From the UHGV virus genome UHGV-0050993: DNA of 37,305 nt; one strand, given 5' to 3'. The notes beneath the pieces are model-generated. The model made no database searches and was not told the DNA's origin. It was given only the letters and a program-made list of their open reading frames with translations. Shown here piece after piece: positions 1,363 to 7,758 of this stretch. The position numbers and the translations under genes are program-made. Source of the stretch: a virus. Within the stretch, counting starts at the first letter, position 1. Each line of letters starts with the position of its first letter.

Positions 1363-3450
1363 TTATTGAATCATTACGTTAACTCTAAGATTTGCTCGTT
1401 CGTTATTACTATCACCAGTATCAGCACGGTATCCAACTACCACATCAGTGTTAGTTACATCTTTTACCCACGCTATAACTGTAGATGTGGTTGGTGTAGC
1501 CCTATCATCTATCGTTAACTGTATTTGTCTGAAATCTGGCTTGTAAAGGAATTTATGAGGGATGCTTATGTCTTTACTTCCAGGTGTTGATATGTCAAGA
1601 GTTTCACTTAGTCTTTGTATTGTTGAATACCCTATGTTATTTATTGATGCTGATATATTCCAATTCTGGCTCCTATTTAAATCAGGAGGATCTCCATAGA
1701 AGGGGGTCTGTCCGCTTAATAACTCCATTGATATGCTTATATTCTCTGATGCAGGGGTTCCCTCAGACACAAAACCAGTATCGCAACGGTAAACTGATCC
1801 TGTAATATTATTTCCACGCATAGAGTTTTGCTTGGAAGATCTACGAATGGCCACAGTACAAGATCTAGCATTAAATGTTACTGTCTGCCCAGCCCCATCT
1901 AAATAGACTAGTTCGCCATTACAATTCTTTCCAGAAACCTTTAACATCCCACCAACGGAAGATGATGAATATAGCCCAATTCCTGAATATAAACGCCCTG
2001 CTTCTGCATCTCCTGCCGGTGCAGTTGAGTTTGAGAAATTCATTTCAACCTGAGCATCATTTGTAACCACTACAGCTGTAGAACCAACAACCCTTGCTGG
2101 TTGGGTTATAGTTCGTTTACATGTAATGCGACAAGAAAATCCAGCTGAGGCTGCTATCGTTGCGCCATCAAATGATGCATTTGGTAATGTGTAATATGGA
2201 ATATCTCCAGTCCAATTTGGATGTAGAAGACTAAGACTCCTGATATCAAAAAATGCTGACCCGTATGTATTTGCGCTAATATTTATCTGTGCACGAGAAC
2301 TTTCTGCGATAACTCGACCACCCTCAGTTAGTCGCACGGTATTCCTTGTTCTAAAGGCGGTTCCAGACCACGCAGCATATGTATGGACATCTCCAATCTC
2401 AATATTAGCCCCATCAATAACAATCCCGTCAACTTCGGACCCTGGGTACACGGTTGAGGTCGCAACTGAGCTTTCTGCCAAAGGTCTTGGCAATATCCCC
2501 GCCCGACCTATCCATGCTTTTCGCAATATGCCGTCGTTTGGCCCTTGAATTATAATACCCTCCTGCCCAAAATCGCGCCCTACGATACTTATATCGTACA
2601 GCGCTATCCGGGATGCTGAGTTCTCAGCACCAGGGTCTTTAAACCAAGCGCCAATGCCAGGTACGTTATTTAGCAAGATGTCGATTGTAAAGCCGAAACC
2701 CTGTACCTCCAGCCCATTACCGGACGTGTTACCCAAAACACCGGTTGCAGCATTCCATGCACTTGTAAAATAATTACAGTCAATACCTAGATTAGTTATT
2801 TCGAAATTATTTGCATTTGCTATAACCGCAGTAGAGTTCGTTCCAGATATTTGTTTCAAGGTGGTTTGAGTGTATCCAGAACCGTTAATAACACATCCAT
2901 CTGGTATGGCTAGTGTGCTAAATAAGTATGTACCTGGAGGAATATTGACATCAAGTGTATTTATTGCCGCTTGTAATGCATCTGTATCATCGTTAACACC
3001 ATCACCTTTAGCTCCATAATATTGAGGCGTCTTCCGCAACGTGTCGTAAACATTTGACTCTCCATAGCCAATAAATTTAGCTCCATCATGACCAGACAGC
3101 CTATTCTCAAGTTGATCAGGGTCATACTTCAGCACATTCGGAAAATAGAACTGCTGCGCACCATACGCATCATAAACAGCCATAGAATGACCTTGCACAG
3201 TTACGAACTTGGCAATCTGTCCGTTATATACCGGATATCCAGCAGCGTTAATGATGATTGGTTGCGAAACAGGGACATGAGAACCGTCTTCGTTCTCCAC
3301 ATAAACCTGAATCTGGTTTTCAGGATTTACCGGGTCAGTGTCAATTTTACCGATATAAATTTTGCCATTGGCAACCGCTTTAAAAGAACGCGCCATAGTG
3401 AAGAGTTGCGAAGGCATCGATACGATCACATTGGCTGTAATGTCTGTCAT
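1363..3450 (-). CDS. Tailspike protein, P22-type N-terminal head-binding domain with divergent beta-helix receptor-binding domain
   Basis: N-terminus [13 protein letters not shown]...[21 protein letters not shown]...VLKYDPDQ closely recalls P22 gp9 head-binding domain; remainder diverges and carries a [19 protein letters not shown] motif typical of pectate-lyase-like depolymerases. Confidence 0.9.
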
Positions 3451-3507
3451 TTAATTTGCTCCAGATACAATGAATCGCCGCAGCGTGGCCACGGTGAATT
3501 TTGGGCA

Positions 3508-3533
3508 TAAAAAAACCCAGCCGAAGCTGGGTA
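3508..3533 (-). terminator. Rho-independent terminator downstream of ant
   Basis: On - strand: ACCCAGC-TTCG-GCTGGGT hairpin followed by a T7 run, between ant stop (3551) and tailspike start (3450). Confidence 0.7.
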
Positions 3534-3550
3534 GTTGCGTTGGTTATCTG

Positions 3551-4486
3551 TCAGTAGTTATGTATTGAAGGAGGTAATTCTTTATTCTTAAGTCTCATCC
3601 ATGCGGAAAGATTCGTTGGTCCGTCTGGCTCATTAATATCAACATCTCGTGTGTGATTGATTAAAACGTCTCTCGCCATTCCGATAACATACGAGAATTC
3701 ATGACCGTAGTAGTAGCATCTGCCGGAATAGTTCGATTGAATTTGTTTTAATGCCGGATACAGTTCGCGGAATAATGCCTGTGAACGGTTGGCATAATCC
3801 CATAACCATACAAGGCTGTTTGCTTCTTTTGCAGAAAGCTCGTTGGTTTTCTTCTCTTGTTTGCCGATGAACTCACCGTCAAGTGGAACTCGAGCTGCAA
3901 GTGACAGTGCTTCGGCAAACTGCTCCTCACTGATTTCTTTGTATGAACACCCAAAATGGGATTTCAGTGACGACCACATGGTGATCATCGCCTTAGCCTG
4001 TTTTTCCTTTGACAGAGACTGACCGCGACTCATGACGAGTTGTTTAATGGCTTCCTGCTGTTCAGTGGTGATTTTACCCGGCAACGCCTTTTTAGCTTTG
4101 CGTGGGTTAACTACATGGCCTTTAGTCCAGTAGTCATGCAGCACGCTAAAGCATTCCTCCTGGTACTGAATCAGTTTATCGCGGATGTCAGCTCGAACTT
4201 TCTCAGGGTTGATGCTGAACAGCCATCCATTTAACTTCTTCAAAGGAAGGCAGAGTAGCTTACGAAGCTTCCCATCAGCGGCAACCATATTCATATGAAT
4301 ACAGTTGAACTTATCTAGTTGTTTCATAAGTTTTTGTTGCTGAGTACCCCAACTCATTCCAAGGTTTTCAACGATTGGCTTCATCGCAACGTATGCAACT
4401 CCGGCAGCCATGGCGGTGATAATTTGCTGACCGTTGAATGGTACGTAAGAGGTGTTCACTGCTTCTAAAATTGCTATACTATTCAT
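3551..4486 (-). CDS. ant: Antirepressor Ant (immI)
   Basis: ORF extends to 4552 but likely start is [10 protein letters not shown] at 4486 with GGAG upstream; position after arc and similarity to P22 Ant-type antirepressors. Confidence 0.8.
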
Positions 4487-4518
4487 GTTGGTTTTTCTCC
4501 ACGGATTTACTGACAACC

Positions 4519-4550
4519 GAAGCCCTGACTGTTCCCGCAGTTGGGGCTTC
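4519..4550 (+). ncRNA. Candidate sar-like antisense RNA terminator hairpin in arc-ant intergenic region
   Basis: Inverted repeat GAAGCCC...GGGCTTC in the 68-bp arc-ant spacer; in P22 a small antisense RNA (sar) ends here. Hairpin seen in sequence; RNA identity is inference. Confidence 0.3.
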
Positions 4551-4554
4551 AACT

Positions 4555-4716
4555 TTACGCGCCAATGCGCCCTTCCTTCTTAAAGCTTTCCATTACTCTC
4601 TGATAAATCTCAGAGTTAACAGACCGACCATTCTCTTCCGCCACCTTGCGTACCAAATCCAATACTTCTTTAGGCCACCGCAAATTGAACTGCGGCATCT
4701 TGCTCATTCCTTTCAT
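4555..4716 (-). CDS. arc: Arc repressor
   Basis: [53 protein letters not shown] is near-identical to P22 Arc (53 aa) as I recall it; ORF track shows longer upstream extension but canonical start is at 4716. Confidence 0.95.
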
Positions 4717-4732
4717 ATTCACCTCACAATAT

Positions 4733-4779
4733 AGGTCCACCGTGGACCTATTGAGAATATAGTAGAGTGCTTCTATCAT
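4733..4779. promoter_or_regulatory. immI operator region: Mnt operator palindrome and Arc operator (Pant/Pmnt)
   Basis: Perfect palindrome AGGTCCACCGTGGACCT (4733-4749, Mnt operator-like) and ATAGTAGAGTGCTTCTATCAT (4759-4779, Arc operator-like) between divergent arc and mnt. Confidence 0.85.
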
Positions 4780-4806: not shown

Positions 4807-5058
4807 ATGGCTAGAGATGATCCGCACTTTAACTTCCGTATGCCTATGGAAGTAAGGGAGAAATTAAAATTCAGGGCGGAGGCGAATGGGAGATCAATGA
4901 ACTCCGAGTTGTTACAAATCGTCCAAGATGCTCTATCAAAACCATCGCCTGTGACTGGATATCGTGACGATGCAGAACGACTCGCTGATGAGCAGTCAGA
5001 TCTTGTTAAGAAGATGGTGTTTGATACGCTGAAGGATTTGTACAAAAAACCCACCTGA
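4807..5058 (+). CDS. mnt: Mnt repressor
   Basis: MARDDPHFNFRMPMEVREKLKFRAEANGRSMNSELLQIVQDALSKPSPVTGYR... matches P22 Mnt almost residue for residue. Confidence 0.95.
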   Translation: MARDDPHFNFRMPMEVREKLKFRAEANGRSMNSELLQIVQDALSKPSPVTGYRDDAERLADEQSDLVKKMVFDTLKDLYKKPT

Positions 5059-5075
5059 TGGTGGGTCCTATTTAT
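5047..5075. terminator. Bidirectional terminator between mnt and lipoprotein gene
   Basis: ACCCACC-TGAT-GGTGGGT hairpin flanked by A-run upstream and T-rich tract downstream, overlapping mnt stop codon. Confidence 0.65.
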
Positions 5076-5494
5076 TAGTCTTGATTTGTTGATGGTATAA
5101 GAGATGCGTTTGCCTCTTTTGGCTTCAAGGTATACATCCCACCATTAAATGGATCAACAGCAAGCCAACCAATTAACCCACCAAACACAAGGTTTCCACC
5201 AATATACCAACCATTAGCATTGGCTTTGATTGGCAGGGTAACTGGTTCGTACCCATCCTTCTCCATAGTGATCTGGTAGCTCTTTTTGCCAAAATAACTA
5301 CCATCTGACTTGGCAAGAGTTACTCCTTGTGGAGTCTTGCCTTGCGCAACAATCACGCCTGATTCATCTTTTACCTTAAAGCTCGCACCGGAAGGGTTGC
5401 TGTTCACTTGCACAAGTTGCGTTTCATCACCAACAATAGTTGCGCACCCAGATAACATGATAACGCCAGCAACGACGCTAATAATCCTCTTCAT
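5075..5494 (-). CDS. Putative lipoprotein (moron at the position occupied by sieA in P22)
   Basis: Signal peptide with lipobox (MKRIISVVAGVIMLSGC); Gly-rich C-terminal region. Sits between ejection-protein gene and mnt. ORF track start 5506; MKRIIS start at 5494 preferred. Confidence 0.7.
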   Translation of the reverse strand: MKRIISVVAGVIMLSGCATIVGDETQLVQVNSNPSGASFKVKDESGVIVAQGKTPQGVTLAKSDGSYFGKKSYQITMEKDGYEPVTLPIKANANGWYIGGNLVFGGLIGWLAVDPFNGGMYTLKPKEANASLIPSTNQD

Positions 5495-5589
5495 ATCAAT
5501 TTCCATATCTAAAAAACCGGAAACATCCTAATGACAAATCATTCAAATGTGAAGCACGAGATAAGATCAATCCATCCGTGGACGACTAA

Positions 5590-7758
5590 TTACTCCTGTG
5601 TCATTCCACTTAGCGATGCCACAATTCCAGCCCTTGCTAAACGCTGGAACTCTTCGTTTCCTAGTGCCTCACGTATTGCTTTTACGGCGGCCTTATTTGC
5701 CATAAATCTGCGTTCAGCCGCCGCTAATGCACCATCACTTGCCCCAACCTTAACGGCCTTTGTTGCCTCTTGAACAGCCTTTTCAATAGCGTAACGACCA
5801 CTTCTGGTTGCGGATAATTTCGCTATCGATCCTTTTGCTATCGCATCAATTGCTCCACCTGCAGCGCCACCAACTATTGCTCCAATAACACCTCCTCCAG
5901 AGAACCCTGCGATAGCGCCAGCGGTTGGAAAAGCGCCAGACAATACGCTCTCTAAAACTGGATGAAGGCCATTCTCAAGAGTGCTAATGGCTGGCATAGA
6001 GCGCCCTGTCTGTTCAACATATCGAAGTGGCTTTGTTGCAGCTCTTGCAAGTTCTCCGTATGAACTTGTAATCCTGCCAAGTTCTGGAGAATATCGACTA
6101 ATTGCCTTCACGTTTTGTGGGGTAAGAATAGTCGCGATATGCTTAATTCCAGCCCCTTCAGACTTACCTCCGCGTACCCCTTGCGATACCGCATCTTGTA
6201 ATATTGATGCAATTGCTGGCGCGCGTTCCGACTCAGGTAGGGCGCTTATTATTTTATGGAACTGACCTGTTCCACTTTTTGCTGAACCCTGTAACGCCTT
6301 AGATCCATTAGTTACCAACTGATCAGTTGCAAGGTCTCTACCAAACGCTGCTTCAGCCTGTTCTTGTGCTGTAAATCTTGCCTTTGACAGATCATTAGCT
6401 TTTTGCCAGTCATCAAGAAAACCGCCATTTTGAGCCATTATGCGCATATCTTCCGTTGCTGCATCACGAAGCTCAGCCATGCGCCTTGCCGTATTTGCCT
6501 CACCAGACCTTATATACTTCTGCTCTGCGTCAGCAAGTTTACTTCGCCATGCCTTCATGGCATCAAACGTGATTCCTTTTTTACCAGTTTTAGCATAAGC
6601 AGATGCGAATTGTTTCATCTCAGGAGTTAGCGGCATGCCAGCCAAAATATCACCCTGAATTGTAGCGTTCAGGTTTGACATTCTGGCCTTTGCGTCAGGC
6701 ATCGTGGAGCGGACGCTATCCCATGCGGCCTTTTCTGAATTTTTCATTTTATCAATACTTGCCAAAACCCTTTGTTTTATGGCTGCACTTTTTTCTGATG
6801 CAGTTCCTGCTTCAGCACCAAACTCATCCAATGCTGAGTTAAATTTCGACTCTATTTCACTGAATGCTTTGGTGTGTGCATCCTGTGTAATTCCGGGCTT
6901 TGACGCCAGAATCCCCTCTGCCTGAGCAAGACCACGACTACCTGATCTCATGCCAGGAGTTAATGCGTTGATATCTATTCCAGCAGTATCTGCTGCTTTT
7001 GCTATTTCGTCTGACACGTTAGCTGACTGTCTGGCAATAATCTCTCTTCCTGTACCAGACTTTGCCATTTTCGAAACATCAGCAGCGGAATTTATTGCCC
7101 CGCCACCAAGAACTTGAGGTGATTTAGAGGTTAAGATCCTTCCAGCCCCAGAAAGTATCCCCTGAGCACCAATATTGATACCACCGTTAATGGCGGCATT
7201 TTGTGCAAAATCGCCCTCCTGATTTGCAGCATCAGCAAGAGAACCTGCAATCATGTTTCCTGCGGAACCGATATCTCCAGCGAGCTTTGCTGTCGCTCCA
7301 GCAGCTTTTGCCGCTGTGCCAATTGGCAGGAGATACCCACCAATTGTTTCACCGGCTTGCGCGTAAGGGTCTGTAGGTCGATCGACAGGGCGATAAACAT
7401 CATCCAAAACCTTGGGTCCACCAAGCCCCTGACTGATTGCATTAATCAGACTTGCGCCGCCCTGCAATACGTCAAATGGTATGTTTACCAGACCACGACC
7501 AGCCTGTTCTGCAATTTGCCCTGCACTTTGACCACCAGTGAGCCAATCGCCAGCTTGTTGCATTAATGATGGTTCTTCTTTCTGCTGCTGAGGTGGAGGG
7601 TATGCTGCATAAAACTGATCTCTTGCTTCAGCCCATTTGTCACCAGCCTTAGGGGCAACAACCTCATCAAAATATTGCGCTTGAGCCTGTGCTTTCTGTT
7701 CTTCAGTTAACGCCTGATACTGTGGAGAGGCGATAACATCTTTCCATGCTTTAGCCAT
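5590..7758 (-). CDS. Ejection (injection) protein, P22 gp16-like
   Basis: 722-aa Ala/Gly-rich protein at the gp16 position of the P22 gene order (4-10-26-14-7-20-16); stop/start overlap with upstream gene. Confidence 0.7.

Follow-up and report, generated by a model that had tools for sequence, protein, structure and literature searches.

Introduction

In phage P22, the slot between gene 16 and mnt is held by sieA, and the P22 record gives the order gene 16 (-), sieA (+), orf59a (+) and mnt (+). SieA is a polytopic inner-membrane protein (PMC10883804). The virus genome UHGV-0050993, a stretch of 37,305 nucleotides that we refer to as the window, is a mosaic P22-like (Lederbergvirus-type) Escherichia coli phage whose nearest phage records are phiv205-1, CUS-3 and HK620. 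A preliminary description of the window, made from the sequence, had pointed to the P22 sieA slot and to a gene for a 139-amino-acid lipoprotein in the corresponding place; both statements hold, the open reading frame (ORF) lying between the gene-16 homologue and mnt. This lipoprotein gene is the subject of our analysis. Like sieA, it is an accessory gene of the gene 16/mnt slot, and its Gally orthologue is expressed from the prophage. However, its product is a predicted secreted beta-sandwich lipoprotein without sequence similarity to SieA, and the gene lies on the late-operon strand (-), opposite to that of sieA. When P22 SieA was compared with the window by tblastn, nothing was found below an E-value of 7.9, with SieA types B and C outside the comparison. 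Membership in SieA was ruled out by the absence of similarity and by the single hydrophobic stretch beyond the signal peptide.

Gene 15 of HK97 is cited as a superinfection-exclusion moron in PMC10883804, whose reference 8, Cumby et al. 2012, reportedly proved the exclusion. Both HK97 gene 15 and the lipoprotein gene are promoter-gene-terminator morons, and a relative of the window protein occupies the gene 15 slot, but HK97 gp15 is an unrelated protein of 62 amino acids and the parallel is positional only. It was reportedly described as an inner-membrane protein by Cumby et al. in 2012. Cor (phi80, N15 and T1) and Llp (T5) are likewise small phage lipoproteins, whose genes lie near those for tail or receptor-binding proteins and whose expression serves to change the outer membrane. 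They are phage-restricted FhuA blockers, whereas the family of the window protein is mainly chromosomal. Membership in Cor was rejected, as PHROG 1119 matched residues 1-20 only and NCBIfam NF047972 matched residues 1-30 with 13.1 bits against a cut-off of 31. No T5 record appeared in the tblastn search of the phage collection, in which Llp itself was outside direct comparison.

Bor of phage lambda and Iss are also small outer-membrane lipoprotein morons expressed by lysogens, and the C-terminus of Bor is similarly Gly-containing and hydrophobic. In hhalign, the alignment with Bor/Iss covered 30 columns only, namely the signal peptide and the first strand (74% probability), leaving homology of the mature proteins unsupported. 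SlyB and Pcp share with the window protein a lipid anchor, a Gly-rich hydrophobic hairpin and a small beta domain, although in reversed domain order, and the analogy is functional only. SlyB is induced by stress and in macrophages. The Pfam scan returned no glycine-zipper (PF05433, PF13488) or Rick_17kDa_Anti match at E<=1, SlyB was not found among the structural neighbours listed, and none of the PADLOC-DB 2.0 defence models matched at E<=1.

The closest described genes are gp15 of epsilon34 and GALLYPH_14 of Escherichia phage Gally, which together with PHROG 6823 represent orthologues with 96-99% amino-acid identity in the same slot beside mnt and with the same terminator. Unlike them, the window has neither the hkcB-like gene nor the second lipoprotein gene next to gene 16, and contains an 11-codon relic instead.

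A selected lipoprotein moron

It is well supported, by the sequence together with published RNA sequencing, that the window gene is a selected moron, probably expressed in lysogens, and encodes a lipoprotein of a large bacterial family. What is new here is that copies hop among moron hot-spots, that the LF82 transcriptome reads differently for this gene, and the family size with its invariant motif; the gene itself has been in databases since 2008 as a hypothetical protein, and variable cargo at the slot is well known. The features of the cassette are the following, with the basis of each assignment in brackets.

5075..5494, (-), coding sequence of the 139-amino-acid lipoprotein precursor, orthologue of epsilon34 gp15 and Gally GALLYPH_14 (ORF, identity, PHROG 6823, dN/dS)
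5075..5506, (-), longest reading of the lipoprotein ORF (ORF list)
5444..5494, (-), predicted signal peptide (residues 1-16) and lipobox LSGC, with the Cys17 codon at 5444-5446 (read from the sequence; conservation in relatives)
5216..5422, (-), PEGA/transthyretin-like beta-sandwich, residues 25-93
5132..5215, (-), family-defining Gly-rich hydrophobic motif NGWYIGGNLVFGGLIGWLAVDPFNGGMY, residues 94-121 (conservation, hydrophobicity)
5525..5553, (-), candidate sigma-70 promoter TTCACA-17 nt-TAGGAT, with the left boundary of the cassette at 5554 (promoter scan, conservation)
5044..5074, no strand assigned, intrinsic terminator usable both ways, consisting of an A-run, a stem at 5049-5066 and a T-rich run (folding; epsilon34 annotation)
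5557..5589, (+), putative relic of the 3' end of an epsilon34 gp14/hkcB-like gene, last 11 codons, DKINPSVDD* (tblastn, layout)

Conservation places the start at the ATG of 5494; the in-frame ATG four codons upstream (5506) reads ACG in the Gally copy. By tblastn, the protein is 99.3% identical to epsilon34 gp15 (ACF16641.1), 97.1% to the Gally protein and 96.4% to that of vB_EcoP-720R6, and the profile of PHROG 6823 ('unknown function') matches over the full length (E 8.9e-86, residues 1-139 against profile positions 1-139). The window differs from the epsilon34, Gally and O111:H8 copies by 12-15 synonymous and 1-4 non-synonymous changes, corresponding to ratios of non-synonymous to synonymous substitution rates (dN/dS) of 0.02-0.09, and in the four prophages compared the mature protein is identical over residues 17-136. 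These ratios and 715 homologues at E<=1e-3 establish that the gene is not a chance ORF; it is under strong purifying selection. The exact 139-residue sequence of the window, with Asn137, is absent from a collection of 15 billion proteins, while epsilon34 and Gally carry Lys137. The G+C content of 0.44 is close to that of the neighbouring genes.

Among 50,697 phage records searched by tblastn, the gene was present in four closely related records (three distinct phages) and in one 30%-identical Caulobacter phage; neither P22 nor most P22-like phages have it. The gene is not a conserved virion component, which the preliminary description had named as part of an outcome that would overturn its proposal. 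Of 5,426 complete E. coli genomes, 126 (about 2%) carry the gene, all copies being chromosomal. Two decayed P22-like prophages, in O111:H8 strain 8E and in strain VTB97022v, have lost or truncated their late genes and yet retain the lipoprotein gene as an intact, identical copy (WP_000821222.1) along with the immI genes.

Expression from a repressed prophage

The Gally copy in E. coli LF82 is LF82_139/GALLYPH_14, a gene of 420 nt that adjoins mnt (PMC9928086). Its expression is given in table S1 of that study as log2(fpkm+5), based on fragments per kilobase per million, with two replicates per condition. The samples B1 and B6 are non-macrophage samples, which we read as Dulbecco's modified Eagle medium (DMEM) since the S1 caption names lysogeny broth (LB), DMEM and macrophages. 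The values for LF82_139 (PMC9928086 table S1) are as follows.

LB overnight: 6.22, 4.79
B1: 9.82, 10.19
B6: 10.49, 10.24
Macrophage 1 h: 11.03, 11.00
Macrophage 6 h: 9.39, 9.50

The adjacent gene-16 homologue, LF82_137, remains at 3.6-4.2 across all samples (PMC9928086 table S1). By our re-reading of these tables, LF82_139 therefore lies about 50-130-fold above LF82_137 in DMEM and macrophages, and its log2 fold change in macrophages at 6 h versus LB overnight is 3.84 (q 1.4e-31; PMC9928086 table S4). With LF82_139 high and LF82_137 silent, the repressed prophage thus transcribes the orthologue without involving the late operon, at a level that depends on conditions. Bor was induced in DMEM in the same study, like LF82_139 (PMC9928086). 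The second lipoprotein gene of Gally, LF82_138, is likewise induced in DMEM and macrophages (PMC9928086 table S1), 15-80-fold over the silent late genes in our re-reading. The authors of the LF82 study used the LB-overnight data alone with a 5-fold cut-off and termed Gally 'devoid of any moron' (PMC9928086). For LF82_139 and LF82_138, their tables show otherwise.

Candidate promoter, shared terminator and upstream relic

Homology of the window to epsilon34 and to an O111 prophage starts precisely at the -35 hexamer of the candidate promoter. In Gally the upstream region has diverged, yet both hexamers, with the distance between them, belong to the little that is conserved there. At the other end of the cassette, the terminator hairpin folds with -15.0 kcal/mol in the minus-strand direction, where a UUUUUU tail follows (z -2.9), and with -13.1 kcal/mol in the plus-strand direction. 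The stop codon of mnt, TGA (5056-5058), sits inside the 4-nt loop, the lipoprotein stop codon is 8 nt off, and the same terminator is annotated as Rho-independent in the epsilon34 record. Because P22 homology reaches 5066 and then ends, the terminator is part of the mnt module, and the cassette uses it from the opposite side. The bidirectional terminator shared with mnt, as first proposed from the sequence, is thus confirmed by folding on both strands as well as by the P22 homology.

The claim that the gene forms its own transcription unit is supported, with one reservation. The promoter match, the conserved hexamers and the RNA sequencing of the orthologue favour it, but the 95-nt spacer between gene 16 and the lipoprotein gene contains no terminator and no significant structure (z +0.76), so that read-through from the late operon is also possible. 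The label moron, on the other hand, is appropriate: in the Juhala/Hendrix sense of a gene with its own promoter and terminator that close relatives lack, the cassette comprises promoter, gene and the terminator at mnt and is missing from P22 and most of its kin.

All E. coli and phage copies inspected in detail adjoin mnt, and it is the side facing gene 16 that varies: epsilon34 has an hkcB-like gene there, Gally and 720R6 have an unrelated second lipoprotein gene, and the window has nothing. The putative relic, which separates the candidate promoter from the stop codon of gene 16, matches in 9 of 11 residues, which is weak alone (tblastn E 0.3), but it lies where the epsilon34 layout predicts it. 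We read it as a deletion scar adjoining the cassette; as this remnant of a gp14/hkcB-like gene persists, the window is a deletion derivative of an epsilon34-like arrangement. Within the relic, CCGTGGAC at 5577-5584 was considered as half of an mnt operator and rejected as a chance match inside relic coding sequence. A PhoP-box direct repeat in the promoter was dropped on inspection by eye since its spacing did not fit.

The second lipoprotein of Gally-type prophages has 161 amino acids (MKKSLLIIPLLLAGC...), is unrelated to the PEGA lipoprotein and is encoded divergently from it (LF82 Gally 6555-7040 and vB_EcoP-720R6 3381-3866, in locus coordinates). It is absent from the window.

Lipobox, fold and the Gly-rich motif

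The precursor begins with the signal peptide MKRIISVVAGVIMLSG followed by Cys17. Its N-terminus, MKRIISVVAGVIMLSGC followed by ATIVGD, has a basic region with K2 and R3, a hydrophobic core, the sequence L-S-G-C17 and Ala at position +2, in accordance with the pattern of basic N-region, hydrophobic core and lipobox [LVI][ASTVI][GAS]C of bacterial lipoproteins. An alignment of 50 diverse relatives, with identities as low as 36%, shows no variation at Cys17 and at least 90% conservation at A18 and I20. A strict lipobox is present in 231 of 270 fetched family proteins, and among these the +2 residue is Ala in 210 and Asp in none. The signal peptide and LSGC lipobox noted earlier are therefore confirmed by the sequence, the invariance of Cys17 and the family counts. 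From the lipobox and the +2 rule, lipidation, cleavage and outer-membrane location are predicted.

The AlphaFold2 model has a mean predicted local distance difference test score (pLDDT) of 81. Residues 25-93 form a confident beta-sandwich that agrees in structure comparison with PEGA/transthyretin-like sandwiches, residues 95-120 are modelled with low confidence (pLDDT 54-68) as two short helices, and residues 121-131 form a confident hairpin. The Pfam PEGA family (PF08308) scores 17.6 bits against the window protein, below the cut-off of 20.8, and matches 15 of the 50 relatives (best E 5e-9). Nothing else matched in the Pfam scan at E<=1, and a profile search of PDB sequences returned just one marginal match, a CnaB-like repeat (E 0.076).

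The most conserved segment of the family is the motif NGWYIGGNLVFGGLIGWLAVDPFNGGMY, which is not covered by any Pfam family and is the sole hydrophobic stretch beyond the signal peptide. In the 50 relatives, G109, D114, P115, G118 and M120 are invariant, and W96, Y97, G100, N101, G105, G106 and V113 are at least 90% conserved. The Gly-rich C-terminus of the preliminary description corresponds to this segment (residues 94-121, with eight Gly in 95-119), whereas the last 15 residues are variable and not rich in Gly.

A bacterial family probably captured by phages

An exhaustive HMMER search yielded 3,697 cluster representatives at E<=1e-3, with 1,324 left at E<=1e-10; C-terminal extensions are common among them. 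A scan of species-representative genomes gave 415 relatives. The family is mostly chromosomal and vertically inherited, with syntenic non-prophage members in several genera. Pantoea, Erwinia and Winslowiella share the order amino-acid permease, homocysteine S-methyltransferase, lipoprotein gene and a convergent GNAT acetyltransferase gene, the methyltransferase gene lying directly upstream in 15 loci of the Pantoea/Erwinia group. The homologue of four Photorhabdus species has a GNAT gene upstream and murJ downstream, while five Lonsdalea loci have a lipid-A acyltransferase gene and an EAL-domain gene upstream. Further non-phage copies are found in Chromohalobacter, Enterobacter and A. baumannii, the last carrying a name only, 'PEGA domain-containing protein'. 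Two or more phage-like neighbours, judged against a phage reference set, occur in at least 7 of the 80 best loci, and all seven fall in the closest clade. In a neighbour-joining tree, the phage-borne and island copies of Enterobacterales interleave, and the Pantoea/Erwinia chromosomal clade is separate. Our literature search found no published functional study of the family or of PEGA lipoproteins. As a separate observation, Rosenbergiella australiborealis has a 71%-identical copy in divergent orientation, 0.7 kb downstream of what looks by eye like a gene for TssB, the type VI secretion sheath subunit.

Prophages of lambdoid siphoviruses hold relatives with 62-82% identity at several distinct junctions, listed here with their carriers.

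Tail chaperone/tape measure junction: E. coli ED1a-type, Proteus and an Enterobacterales isolate
Tape measure/gpM junction: a Pantoea metagenome-assembled genome
gpK/gpI junction: Phytobacter
gpI/gpJ junction: Pseudescherichia and others
Beside Q or antirepressor genes: Actinobacillus and Proteus

The chaperone/tape-measure, K/I and I/J junctions coincide with morons or moron terminators annotated in the HK97 record. The slot of HK97 gene 15, between chaperone and tape measure, is filled by a 69%-identical relative in HK97-like E. coli prophages. Such prophages, for example that of E. coli ED1a (CU928162, 1675015-1691428), have in addition a porin gene placed between gpM and gpL, as well as a ClpP/Arc/Arc/antirepressor block after gpL, giving several surface or immunity morons per tail operon.

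Possible function of the lipoprotein

We propose, with a probability of roughly 0.45, a general role in envelope conversion, in which protection of the envelope under host conditions is, by a narrow margin, the leading phenotype. The cassette of promoter, gene and borrowed terminator would act autonomously so that the lysogen makes a small lipoprotein. The precursor would be exported, lipidated at Cys17 and, because the +2 residue is Ala, sorted to the outer membrane by the localization of lipoproteins (Lol) system. A short conserved tether (CATIVG) may keep the PEGA-type beta-sandwich flat on the membrane, while the near-invariant Gly-rich loop (GNLVFGGLIGWLAVDPxxGGMY) might dip into the bilayer or self-associate. 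Since chromosomal genes outside prophages, in syntenic positions of several genera, encode this fold and motif as well, phages have probably captured a general activity of the outer membrane or periplasm rather than devised one against a particular phage protein. The gain for the lysogen would be a changed envelope that offers protection in host-like conditions, after the manner of Bor, Iss or SlyB. Hindered adsorption or DNA entry on superinfection may be what this effect looks like to the incoming phages, or may be a closely ranked alternative.

Several points weigh against the envelope-conversion proposal. The location of the lipoprotein, the insertion of the loop and the phenotype are inferred. 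A tether of seven residues is short for efficient Lol sorting, leaving retention in the inner membrane or surface exposure as possible outcomes, and membrane insertion of the Gly-rich segment is a guess in view of its low modelling confidence. Expression would carry over to the window through core-promoter homology only, as the upstream context is unlike that of Gally. In LB overnight, LF82_139 is only about 3-fold over the prophage background, where the authors named no moron (PMC9928086). Finally, no partner gene or regulator conserved across genera was found in 80 chromosomal and phage loci.

The envelope-conversion proposal lies close to the one made by the preliminary description, that the protein serves primarily as a dedicated superinfection-exclusion lipoprotein, a reading to which we give tentative credence. 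From the inner face of the outer membrane, such a protein would mask a receptor or block the DNA conduit formed by gp7/gp20/gp16 (or the tape measure), so that superinfecting phages adsorb but fail to deliver their DNA; with read-through, it might also shield progeny from debris, as Llp does for T5. Position makes this plausible: the gene occupies the P22 sieA slot, its relative the HK97 gene 15 slot in HK97-like prophages, with gene 15 cited as an exclusion moron in PMC10883804, and entry-apparatus genes always adjoin it. Yet moron hot-spots take many kinds of cargo, which makes position weak evidence, and the lipoprotein gene lies on the late-operon strand, sieA on the other. The tblastn search with P22 SieA found no homologue in the window, the orthologue is expressed in lysogens (PMC9928086 table S1), the interval between gene 16 and the lipoprotein gene contains no terminator, and the porin moron of HK97-like carriers suggests selection on surface receptors. 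However, similarity to Cor and Bor is confined to the signal peptide (plus the first strand for Bor), none exists to SieA, no T5 record matched in the tblastn search of the phage collection, and no PADLOC model matched. These exclusion families are restricted to phages, in contrast to a family that is mostly chromosomal and syntenic in several genera. The podovirus and siphovirus carriers use different receptors, making a single receptor target unlikely, and strong purifying selection without diversification argues against an arms race.

We consider it improbable that the gene is a passenger of little or no benefit, a host lipoprotein gene brought into the variable immI region by illegitimate recombination and transcribed through local de-repression of AT-rich DNA. 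The right end of Gally as a whole, including mnt, the tailspike gene and two hypothetical genes, does show a joint rise in macrophages and DMEM (PMC9928086 tables S1 and S4), the G+C content of 0.44 resembles that of the neighbours, and a CRISPR interference screen of LF82 in the gut pointed to other Gally genes and not to LF82_139 (bioRxiv 10.64898/2026.01.05.697630). A passenger would hardly exhibit dN/dS values of 0.02-0.09 with synonymous changes only across the mature protein, independent capture at five or more phage positions, integrity in decayed prophages and promoter hexamers kept in a diverged upstream region. Still more doubtful is a lytic-cycle accessory protein that is made by late-operon read-through and acts at virion release, for example by modulating the disruption of the outer membrane or masking receptors on debris, rather than in the lysogen. 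It would fit the location 95 nt downstream of gene 16 on the same strand with no terminator between, and the co-orientation inside the tail operons of lambdoid carriers. Against it, LF82_139 is highly transcribed while the neighbouring late genes are silent (PMC9928086 table S1), the gene is missing from most P22-like phages, and chromosomal homologues occur with no phage nearby.

A more specific mechanism by analogy with SlyB, unlikely although slightly less so than a passenger, would be a mobilised outer-membrane lipoprotein whose loop enters the inner leaflet and self-associates around outer-membrane proteins, thereby both masking receptors or entry sites and protecting against stress. If true, such a generic mechanism would explain why podoviruses and siphoviruses with different receptors recruited the cassette, and it would provide a function for thousands of chromosomal homologues.

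Surface-changing morons of prophages decide which phages infect a strain and influence its fate in the host, and the carriers of this cassette include the Crohn's-associated strain LF82 and O111 enterohaemorrhagic E. coli strains. Should the lipoprotein prove to exclude phages, it would add an exclusion family with no relationship to SieA, Cor or Llp, of interest for typing and for phage therapy; should it protect the envelope, it would count as a new factor of lysogenic conversion. In either case, if true, a lipoprotein family that numbers thousands of members in Proteobacteria would obtain its first link to a function.

Neighbouring genes in the window

The lipoprotein gene sits in an accessory region bounded by gene 16 and the tailspike gene, with the following neighbours.

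1363-3450, (-), tailspike gene (ORF list)
3551-4552, (-), ant ORF, mechanical, 333 amino acids, TTG start
4555-4779, (-), arc ORF, mechanical, 74 amino acids
4807-5058, (+), mnt (ORF list)
5590-7758, (-), gene-16 homologue, with the gene-20 homologue beyond (ORF list)

The mechanical ant and arc ORFs exceed the annotated P22/epsilon34 genes, which measure 903 nt and 162 nt, and the true starts are probably internal ATG codons.

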